Below, piece after piece: positions 33,924 through 34,814 of a stretch of 64,000 nt of DNA (position 1 is the first letter of the stretch; every line of letters begins with the position of its first letter). The notes below the pieces were generated by a model, which made no database searches, had not been told where the DNA came from, and worked only from the letters and a program-made list of their open reading frames with translations. Origin of the DNA: Erythrobacter sp. (GTDB taxonomy: Bacteria; Pseudomonadota; Alphaproteobacteria; Sphingomonadales; Sphingomonadaceae); contig PNKW01000005.1 in assembly GCA_013822695.1 (NCBI GenBank), positions 1,863-65,862 of the forward strand. The letters run 5' to 3'. A program made the translations under genes and the position numbers.

Positions 33924-33951
33924 TTGATTTTTTCGCCGATATTGCTATTTT
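33924..33951 (+). promoter_or_regulatory. sigma70-like promoter of the first Panacea module
   Basis: TTGATT-N16-TATTTT with extended TG. Confidence 0.45.
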
Positions 33952-33967
33952 GTTCTCGGAGAACCGC

Positions 33968-34477
33968 ATGCCCTATCCGTCGATACAAGTAGCAAATGAG
34001 CTTTTGAAGGCTCATGGGGAGGTAAGCCCCATGAAGCTTCAGAAGCTGCTATACTATGCTAACGGTTGGTGGCTGGCTATCAACGGCGAGCCGCTTTTGA
34101 GCGAAGCGCCGCAGGTCTGGCGTTATGGCCCTGTGTATCAGCATCTCTACCGAACGTTTTCTCGCTTTCGCCATGAGCCTATCGGCGAACCGGTAAAGGG
34201 TAATCCCTTCGCAGCCGAACCCGAAATGCTGGGCGATAGTGAGGACGAGGGACGAGTCAGACAGCTCTTGGAGTGGATTTGGAGCGAGCACGGCGCCAAA
34301 AGTGCGATCCAGCTCTCCGATGAGACTCATGCAGTTGGTACGCCGTGGCGTGAAATTGCAGAGGAGTACAATTTCCGTATTCCCTACAATGTAGAAATTT
34401 CCCCGAAGCGTGATTGGAAGTTCTTTGCTGAGCAAGCTGAGAAACGCGGCATCCAAACTACTCCGCTCTCCACCTAA
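33968..34477 (+). CDS. Panacea (DUF4065/GepA/SocA-like) antitoxin domain protein
   Basis: SPMKLQKLLYYANGWWLAINGEPL..PQVWRYGPV..LY..F and C-terminal LSDETH..GTPW; visibly lower GC than flanks. Confidence 0.9.
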   Translation: MPYPSIQVANELLKAHGEVSPMKLQKLLYYANGWWLAINGEPLLSEAPQVWRYGPVYQHLYRTFSRFRHEPIGEPVKGNPFAAEPEMLGDSEDEGRVRQLLEWIWSEHGAKSAIQLSDETHAVGTPWREIAEEYNFRIPYNVEISPKRDWKFFAEQAEKRGIQTTPLST

Positions 34478-34814
34478 GCGGAACCTCGACAACACTCCGA
34501 GCGGTGAAGAGGAGTTCGATGATTGGACTAATGAGTCGCGCGTCAGCGGTACGTGGGACTCAGATGCCGCTCGAATTCGAATTGATAAGATTGCCCGCCG
34601 TTTAGCTGTTGGGTGGTCGCTTTTTCTTGTGTGGGTTATTCTCGCTCAAGGCTATCCGACCGACCACTACTTCCTATGGGTTTGGCCCATTCACGGAGCC
34701 TTCAAGCTTGAGCCAACAGAATTTATTGCGGTGGTAACGACTACGACGGCCTCTGTTTTTGGCTTTCTGATTATCGTGACAAGGGATCTGTTTCGCGGCT
34801 CTGCCGATAAGTAA
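34410..34814 (+). CDS. Uncharacterised 2-TM protein, candidate cognate toxin/effector
   Basis: No internal ATG; start is GTG 34410 or TTG 34425, inside the antitoxin gene. TM1 [17 protein letters not shown]; TM2 [24 protein letters not shown]. Confidence 0.65.

Follow-up and report, generated by a model that had tools for sequence, protein, structure and literature searches.

A 64,000-nucleotide stretch of contig PNKW01000005.1 from Erythrobacter sp. (the window, to which all positions below refer) contains a short islet of low guanine-plus-cytosine (GC) content, which holds just a promoter-like site and two genes that overlap on the same strand. The first gene, panA, encodes a standalone Panacea-domain protein, and the second, panT, a small protein with two predicted transmembrane (TM) segments. 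We consider it very likely that the islet came in by horizontal transfer and is a type II toxin-antitoxin cassette of two genes, belonging to the PanA-PanT class, with PanT as the predicted toxin. The main features are:

33916-34830, no strand: low-GC islet, very likely acquired, recognised by its GC content and by a break in similarity in 17 same-genus genomes
33968-34477, plus strand: panA, standalone Panacea-domain protein of 169 amino acids (PF13274)
34416-34420, plus strand: GGAAG, putative ribosome-binding site of panT, inside panA and within an invariant 22-nucleotide block
34425-34477, plus strand: putative dual-coding overlap of panA and panT, 53 nucleotides, with reduced synonymous change
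34425-34814, plus strand: panT, predicted T3-like membrane toxin of 129 amino acids with two TM segments and a TTG start, recognised by its homologues, its ratio of nonsynonymous to synonymous change (pN/pS) and its conserved start

A low-GC islet between DUF445 and etfA

Over the ~915 bp from 33916 to about 34830, GC content is 0.52, compared with 0.665 for the whole window; in profile it is ~0.65-0.70 in the flanks and 0.48-0.58 across 33900-34850. Between the DUF445 stop codon and the etfA terminator, the drop is from ~0.68 to ~0.52. A DUF445 gene (32623-33915; Pfam E 3e-115) forms the left flank, and the islet begins after its stop codon. The right flank is etfA (34912-35841, minus strand), whose terminator faces the islet. 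The original prediction, made from the letters of this stretch, had described an abrupt GC drop between DUF445 and the etfA terminator and a clear DUF4065 (Panacea) protein; both descriptions hold.

PanA matches SocA_Panacea (PF13274) with an E-value of 5.3e-15 and 56.8 bits (cut-off 25.7), its residues 24-127 covering profile positions 1-112 of 113. It also matches the phage families phrog_1281 (5.9e-31) and phrog_10390, and it scores 78.9 bits against the NCBIfam SocA equivalog NF047745, under the 190-bit cut-off of that model. When panA is compared with its counterparts in the two closest cassettes, L039 and L040 (~73% DNA identity to the window), pN is 0.10-0.12 and pS 0.68-0.82.

The second gene starts inside panA

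The second open reading frame (ORF2) extends from 34410 to 34814 without an ATG in frame. It matches no family in Pfam, NCBIfam, PADLOC or PHROGs. A search of 5.8 billion proteins returned 47 homologues, all unnamed, and a profile search of 1.84 billion cluster representatives defined a wide family of 213 clusters at E ≤ 1e-3. The alignment of the 47 homologues has 18 invariant columns, including positions in LDxTPxGxEE, AxxRIDxIARxLA..WS.FL, ILAQG and the threonine-rich motif of the second TM segment. In the part that does not overlap panA, comparison with L039 and L040 gives pN of 0.18-0.20 and pS of 0.78-0.85. By these comparisons, ORF2 is a real gene under purifying selection.

The conserved region of the protein starts at the LD motif (34485), 8 nucleotides beyond the panA stop codon, and more distant homologues have an ATG immediately before this motif. 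Upstream of it, the window offers just two canonical starts in frame, GTG 34410 and TTG 34425, so the panT start is predicted to lie inside panA. We rejected the GTG, which reads GAG or GGG in L039 and L040, whereas GGAAG-N4-TTG is invariant. This string is part of a 22-nucleotide block (34412-34433), GATTGGAAGTTCTTTGCTGAGC, that is identical in the window, L039 and L040, and gene callers place the start in L039 and L040 at the equivalent codon, with the same 53-nucleotide overlap. Because the GTG is not conserved, the GGAAG-TTG block is, and the callers agree in the relatives, we take TTG 34425 as the start, giving a protein of 129 amino acids. Synonymous change within the overlap falls to 0.15-0.35 in both frames, against 0.7-0.85 elsewhere, as expected for an overlap that is dual-coding. 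A start inside the antitoxin gene had been foreseen in the original prediction, and that part is borne out. The same text had stressed that the protein is "Met-less", which means nothing beyond the TTG start, as close homologues hold internal methionines.

The NCBI record (P0056, 34630-34814) gives a product of 61 amino acids only, identical to the C-terminus of PanT and starting at a GTG inside the first TM segment. The conserved 129-residue form is present in Logan and ENA gene calls only, where the exact product is encoded on 32 public contigs, and the 61-residue product is almost certainly a mis-call. Taken at face value, this record and the lack of an ATG in the ORF2 frame would suggest that the full-length protein is not expressed here, that only the short GTG product or nothing is made, and that the module is a decaying remnant. 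We find this very improbable. The full frame is intact, its N-terminal 60 residues carry near-invariant family motifs, the GGAAG-TTG block has stayed invariant in relatives at 73% DNA identity, pN/pS points to selection along the whole length of ORF2, and the shorter product would start by cutting through the first TM segment.

One more start was considered and rejected. An out-of-frame ATG at 34519, behind GAAGAGGAG, opens an ORF of 28 amino acids (33 from GTG 34504; 34504-34605), and the string resembling a ribosome-binding site consists of codons of the conserved GEEE motif. This ORF is probably due to chance.

PanA and PanT are conserved as a pair

We examined the neighbourhoods of homologous toxin genes. 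Ten genome loci were available, from Roseibium, Mesorhizobium, a verrucomicrobial Lacunisphaera, Caulobacterales, Brevundimonas and Sphingomonas; nine have a Panacea gene directly upstream on the same strand, where panA overlaps or abuts the toxin gene. A Panacea gene also lies directly upstream on the same strand in all five metagenome contigs examined. In an even sample of 401 Alphaproteobacteria genomes (including that of the window), linkage to Panacea was found in 9 of the 11 other genomes with a match to the wide family. As for the two exceptions, one toxin match lies at a contig edge, and the other is a weak match (G170) in a genome without any Panacea gene. The similarity of PanA tracks that of the toxin, with E-values of 1e-52 to 1e-60 alongside close toxins and ~1e-16 alongside distant ones, as expected for co-evolving cognate pairs. 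By these sequence comparisons, the PanA-PanT pair is conserved as a unit. The pairing of a Panacea antitoxin with a membrane protein, proposed from the islet itself, is thus upheld, the toxin gene being almost always directly behind Panacea.

Some loci are arranged differently. The exception among the ten genome loci, L007:3803-4282, is an orphan: its toxin has an aberrant N-terminus, and PanA is missing upstream. L010:3247-4114 is a decayed pair, in which PanA is split into two ORFs and the toxin is a 51-residue stump. In Rhodobacter phage RC1 (L060, 1141-2361), the open frame that comes after the Panacea gene has ~243 amino acids and is unrelated to the T3-like toxins, another partner swap. 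The genome of the window has two Panacea genes, both inside the window, and a single copy of the toxin family. The second Panacea gene (51738-52587, minus strand) encodes 212 amino acids, scores 45 bits against PF13274 and overlaps a partner ORF of 100 amino acids.

The surroundings of the cassette vary. In relatives it is found between dnaN and recF, or beside NhaA, a major facilitator superfamily (MFS) transporter or recG. In Brevundimonas intermedia B-10 (L006:485-5377) and another Brevundimonas (L009:439-5368), a PanA/T3-toxin pair stands between dnaN and recF in a dnaA-dnaN-recF row. In the related Caulobacter, the toxin under the control of the Panacea protein SocA has the DnaN clamp as its target; the dnaN-recF location of the Brevundimonas pairs may be a permissive gap only. 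Among the metagenomic cassettes, L041 is surrounded by many small ORFs, L040 by exonucleases and L039 by an IS1595 transposase.

The cassette replaced a resident gene

The right-hand limit of the islet is set by a feature outside it:

34844-34878, minus strand: native etfA intrinsic terminator, a 14-pair stem followed by a T-run

Both flanks, DUF445 and etfA, are common to 17 same-genus genomes at 72-92% DNA identity. Similarity ends at 33916 and resumes in the terminator region, and the islet DNA is present in none of the 17 genomes sharing both flanks. The terminator hairpin lies at the same position in three relatives (G011, G001 and G018), with compensatory changes. At the DUF445-etfA site, most same-genus relatives encode a ~300-residue protein that has a signal peptide and a TonB_C domain; some hold two or three copies of it, or additional genes. 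In the window genome, TonB_C occurs only as a distant paralogue elsewhere. Because relatives hold TonB_C at this site and native sequence resumes at the conserved etfA terminator, we infer that the cassette displaced the resident TonB_C gene cleanly between two housekeeping genes.

No empty DUF445-etfA junction was found among the relatives' genomes searched, and the junction is a variable spot in the genus. G018 carries a different low-GC (0.48-0.54) single-gene insert, encoding a DUF3800 protein, exactly at the DUF445-etfA site (L027, 236-988, minus strand). Other relatives have one to three TonB_C genes there, or additionally FlbT-like and sigma-70-like genes. We found no convincing direct repeats or att-like sites flanking the islet and no mobility genes within it, and an Rfam scan of 33600-35100 returned no RNA family. 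Aligned with L039 and L040, the closest cassettes, the window DNA is similar only over 33957-34780. The islet sequence is intact in ~20 drinking-water and freshwater metagenome runs.

PanT belongs to, or lies right beside, toxin cluster T3

Kurata et al. named Panacea in 2022 and catalogued its partner toxins (PMC8832971). The toxins from Shiga toxin-producing Escherichia coli (STEC) O31 (cluster T3) and from Bartonella apis (T12) depolarised the membrane and admitted SYTOX Green, indicating large pores (PMC8832971). The validated T3 pair is that of E. coli STEC O31, PanA WP_000287252.1 and PanT WP_000019185.1 (PMC8832971). Dataset S1 of that work lists WP_135194607.1 and WP_135194606.1 of B. 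intermedia B-10 as a T3 pair with an 11-nucleotide overlap, and its T3 entries have overlaps of -4 to -50, for example -50 in Marinicaulis flavus (PMC8832971).

The catalogued Brevundimonas pair connects the window to this cluster. L006:3887-4222 encodes WP_135194606.1 letter for letter, and the overlap in L006 is also 11 nucleotides. The profile of the window family (A1) matches WP_135194606.1 with 47.0 bits (E 1.8e-7 at Z=1.8e9), the shared region being EFIAV(V/I)...LF. The tested STEC O31 toxin itself did not appear in the 120 matches listed for the wide-family search, few of which carry organism names. Because the profile matches the L006 toxin, which is the catalogued T3 member, the window toxin is placed by sequence in the T3 family: it is a T3-family PanT or lies right beside cluster T3, in a sub-branch set apart by an N-terminal motif of its own and by a longer loop. 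The original prediction had called the toxin uncharacterised; this no longer fits a protein in or right beside a PanT cluster whose E. coli member has been shown to depolarise and permeabilise the membrane (PMC8832971).

Like the window cassette, T3 PanAT pairs have a standalone Panacea antitoxin first and then a small toxin whose N-terminus is charged and whose TM helices lie at the C-terminal end, frequently with an overlap. The Brevundimonas T3 toxin differs in its loop, which has ~10 residues compared with ~22 in the window, and LDxTPxGxEE is the window subfamily's own. The T12/D11 pairs of Bartonella apis and B. choladocola also share the charged N-terminus and TM helices, and pore formation has been measured for the Bartonella toxin, but their sequence similarity to PanT is undetectable: the T12 test case, YP_003344835.1 of Aggregatibacter phage S1249, did not match the A1 or A3 family profiles with filters off. 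SocAB of Caulobacter crescentus resembles the window pair in that SocA has the same Panacea domain. It differs in that panA stays far below the SocA equivalog cut-off and that the window partner is a membrane protein without a family match. The partner of SocA, SocB, is soluble and inhibits the beta sliding clamp, and SocA serves as a ClpXP adaptor, not as a direct neutraliser. The type I toxins Hok/Gef and TisB recall the role predicted for PanT, being small hydrophobic proteins that collapse the membrane potential; however, they are single-helix proteins of ~30-50 amino acids under antisense-RNA control, whereas the window has a 129-residue, two-helix protein with a protein antitoxin. HokB served as a comparison toxin in the Panacea work (PMC8832971).

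Several points weigh against reading PanT as a pore-forming toxin. Its link to the tested E. coli toxin is indirect and passes through one catalogued T3 member. Identity to WP_135194606.1 is ~40% over the C-terminal 80 residues only, next to the longer inter-helix loop and distinct N-terminal motif. The structural model described below has moderate confidence and no fold match in the PDB, and the evidence for transcription, also given below, comes from low-depth RNA-type contigs for which carry-over of DNA is possible. Finally, toxicity of the window PanT and its neutralisation by PanA are predicted by analogy with other pairs.

This last point leaves room for a benign protein, a membrane partner or anchor of PanA with a non-toxic function. 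At least one predicted PanT in the catalogue, from C. difficile cluster T4, is listed as 'not Toxic' (PMC8832971), and the orphan copy in L007 and the weak match in the Panacea-less genome would perhaps be tolerable only if the protein were harmless. The homology to cluster T3, in which the tested toxin forms pores, argues for a toxin instead. So does the strict antitoxin-first overlap with a weak start codon, which is typical of toxin control. The aberrant N-terminus in L007 and the truncated toxin beside the split PanA in L010 fit decay after the balance between the two proteins was lost. On balance we think a harmless PanT improbable.

Architecture and proposed action of PanT

The two TM segments that the original prediction had described, with TTTTA in the second, were both recovered as hydropathy peaks:

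34599-34652, plus strand: TM1 of PanT, residues 59-76, a hydropathy peak within the AlphaFold2 helix 51-81 (numbered from the GTG)
34719-34781, plus strand: TM2 of PanT, residues 99-119, a hydropathy peak of 2.2 with the invariant threonine-rich motif (four threonine codons at 34737-34748)

The TTTTASV core of TM2 is retained across the wide family. Ahead of TM1, the N-terminus has the conserved LDxTPxGxEE and then an amphipathic helix, AxxRIDxIARxLA. The N-terminus holds 11 lysines plus arginines and many acidic residues; the loop has 1 lysine or arginine, and the C-terminus has 3. Because of this 11/1/3 distribution, PanT is probably an inner-membrane protein with both ends in the cytoplasm. 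An AlphaFold2 model built with the family alignment (predicted local distance difference test, pLDDT, 73) has short N-terminal helices, then one long helix running from the amphipathic segment through TM1, and then TM2; the helices span residues 51-81 and 102-132 in GTG numbering. A fold search of the model against the PDB gave no match at E ≤ 0.001.

If PanT acts like its tested relative, free PanT would insert into the inner membrane and oligomerise, and its pores would collapse the membrane potential, an effect that measurements have shown for the E. coli T3 toxin; the threonine ladder of TM2 may line the pore. PanA would neutralise PanT by binding its cytoplasmic N-terminal segment just ahead of TM1. 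We place the docking site there because such an interface has been predicted and supported by mutation in another pair of a standalone Panacea protein and a membrane toxin (PMC10440598). In that work, Ernits et al. (2023) predicted that standalone Panacea contacts two parts of a membrane PanT, its unstructured N-terminus and a short helix just before the TM segment, and two interface substitutions abolished neutralisation in the B. choladocola pair (PMC10440598). With a weak TTG start located within panA, toxin synthesis would stay low and be coupled to translation of the antitoxin.

Promoter and expression

Two further features lie upstream of panA:

33924-33951, plus strand: promoter-like TTGATT-N16-TATTTT, read from the sequence; weak, with 8 of 12 positions
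33952-33964, plus strand: palindrome GTTC-N5-GAAC, overlapping the panA ribosome-binding site GGAGAA (33958-33963)

The original prediction had given the islet its own sigma70-like promoter. The particular site does not fare well, as it agrees at 8 of 12 positions and the promoter scan did not call TTGATT-N16-TATTTT at 33924. The idea of an own promoter fares better: L039 and L040 have a conserved -35/-10 pair, TTGCAT-N17-CATATAGGGAACGGAGA, with CATATA as the -10, at the same distance from panA and with an unconserved spacer. Because these two cassettes share the pair at equal distance from panA, cassettes of this kind seem to carry their own promoter.

The GTTC-N5-GAAC palindrome occurs in the window only, not upstream of related cassettes, and it does not match the alphaproteobacterial LexA box GTTC-N7-GTTC. 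We also looked for a LexA box upstream of panA, as GTTC-N7-GTTC or CTGT-N8-ACAG; none is present in the window or in ten related upstream regions. An imperfect 30-nucleotide inverted repeat (77% complementary, 7-nucleotide spacer) lies at 33990-34056, within the 5' part of panA.

Transcription of the islet is suggested by RNA-type fragments, which are weak evidence: runs of this type gave identical low-depth contigs over 33642-34000, 34366-34592 (which crosses the panA-panT overlap), 34410-34706, 34471-34698 and 34616-34817.

Biological role and significance

What the cassette does for its host may be either stabilisation of the insert or abortive infection. The second would make the same pair an anti-phage module, in which PanA senses a phage cue and releases pore-forming PanT, so that the infected cell dies. 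In favour of this, a sensor role of Panacea has been hypothesised, and a different membrane-depolarising system, RosmerTA, defends against phage (PMC10440598). The surroundings of some homologous cassettes (L041, L040 and L039) are phage-like or mobile, and PanA matches the two phage protein families named above. But neither protein matches any model in PADLOC-DB v2 at E ≤ 1, and no defence genes lie near the cassette in the window, where it is isolated between DUF445 and etfA. The cassettes of other genomes lie among housekeeping genes (dnaN/recF) or beside NhaA or an MFS transporter, again with no defence genes nearby. A tblastn search with the window toxin and the Brevundimonas T3 toxin found no homologue in 50,697 phage records or 72,556 plasmids, and no phage-protection test of a T3 PanAT is reported in PMC8832971 or PMC10440598. 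Anti-phage defence by the window cassette is unsupported, and we judge it unlikely to be the better description. The suggestion of an anti-phage system in the original prediction is not supported: PADLOC finds no match, and both here and in most relatives the two genes have been inserted by themselves between housekeeping genes. Overall, the observation behind that prediction is confirmed, and its interpretation was right in kind and is partly supported.

A bolder version can be put forward as speculation that we would not bet on. The window toxin would represent a distinct T3 sub-branch with the near-invariant LDxTPxGxEE and a long periplasmic loop; the acidic motif would dock Panacea, and a phage or stress cue would free a two-helix pore lined with threonines (TTTT). 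If true, this would be a minimal sensor-plus-pore abortive-infection unit that settles in any intergenic gap without mobility genes.

The reading that we prefer, an acquired PanA-PanT toxin-antitoxin cassette, is a more familiar one. The toxin family was already catalogued in 2022 and one member has been tested; the window adds a member of that kind, and no new kind of system. The practical value of the finding is modest and consists of an annotation correction and a clear family signature. The correction replaces the public 61-residue fragment by the 129-residue protein starting at the TTG inside panA. The signature of T3-like PanT comprises the amphipathic helix before TM1, QG after TM1, and F.L...IA..TTTTASV.G....V..YLF in TM2. 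Its residues are targets for mutagenesis, which would bear on the mechanism of the pore-forming relatives and on how a soluble Panacea protein restrains a membrane protein. Without repeats or mobility genes of its own, the cassette also illustrates how minimal toxin-antitoxin cassettes spread.
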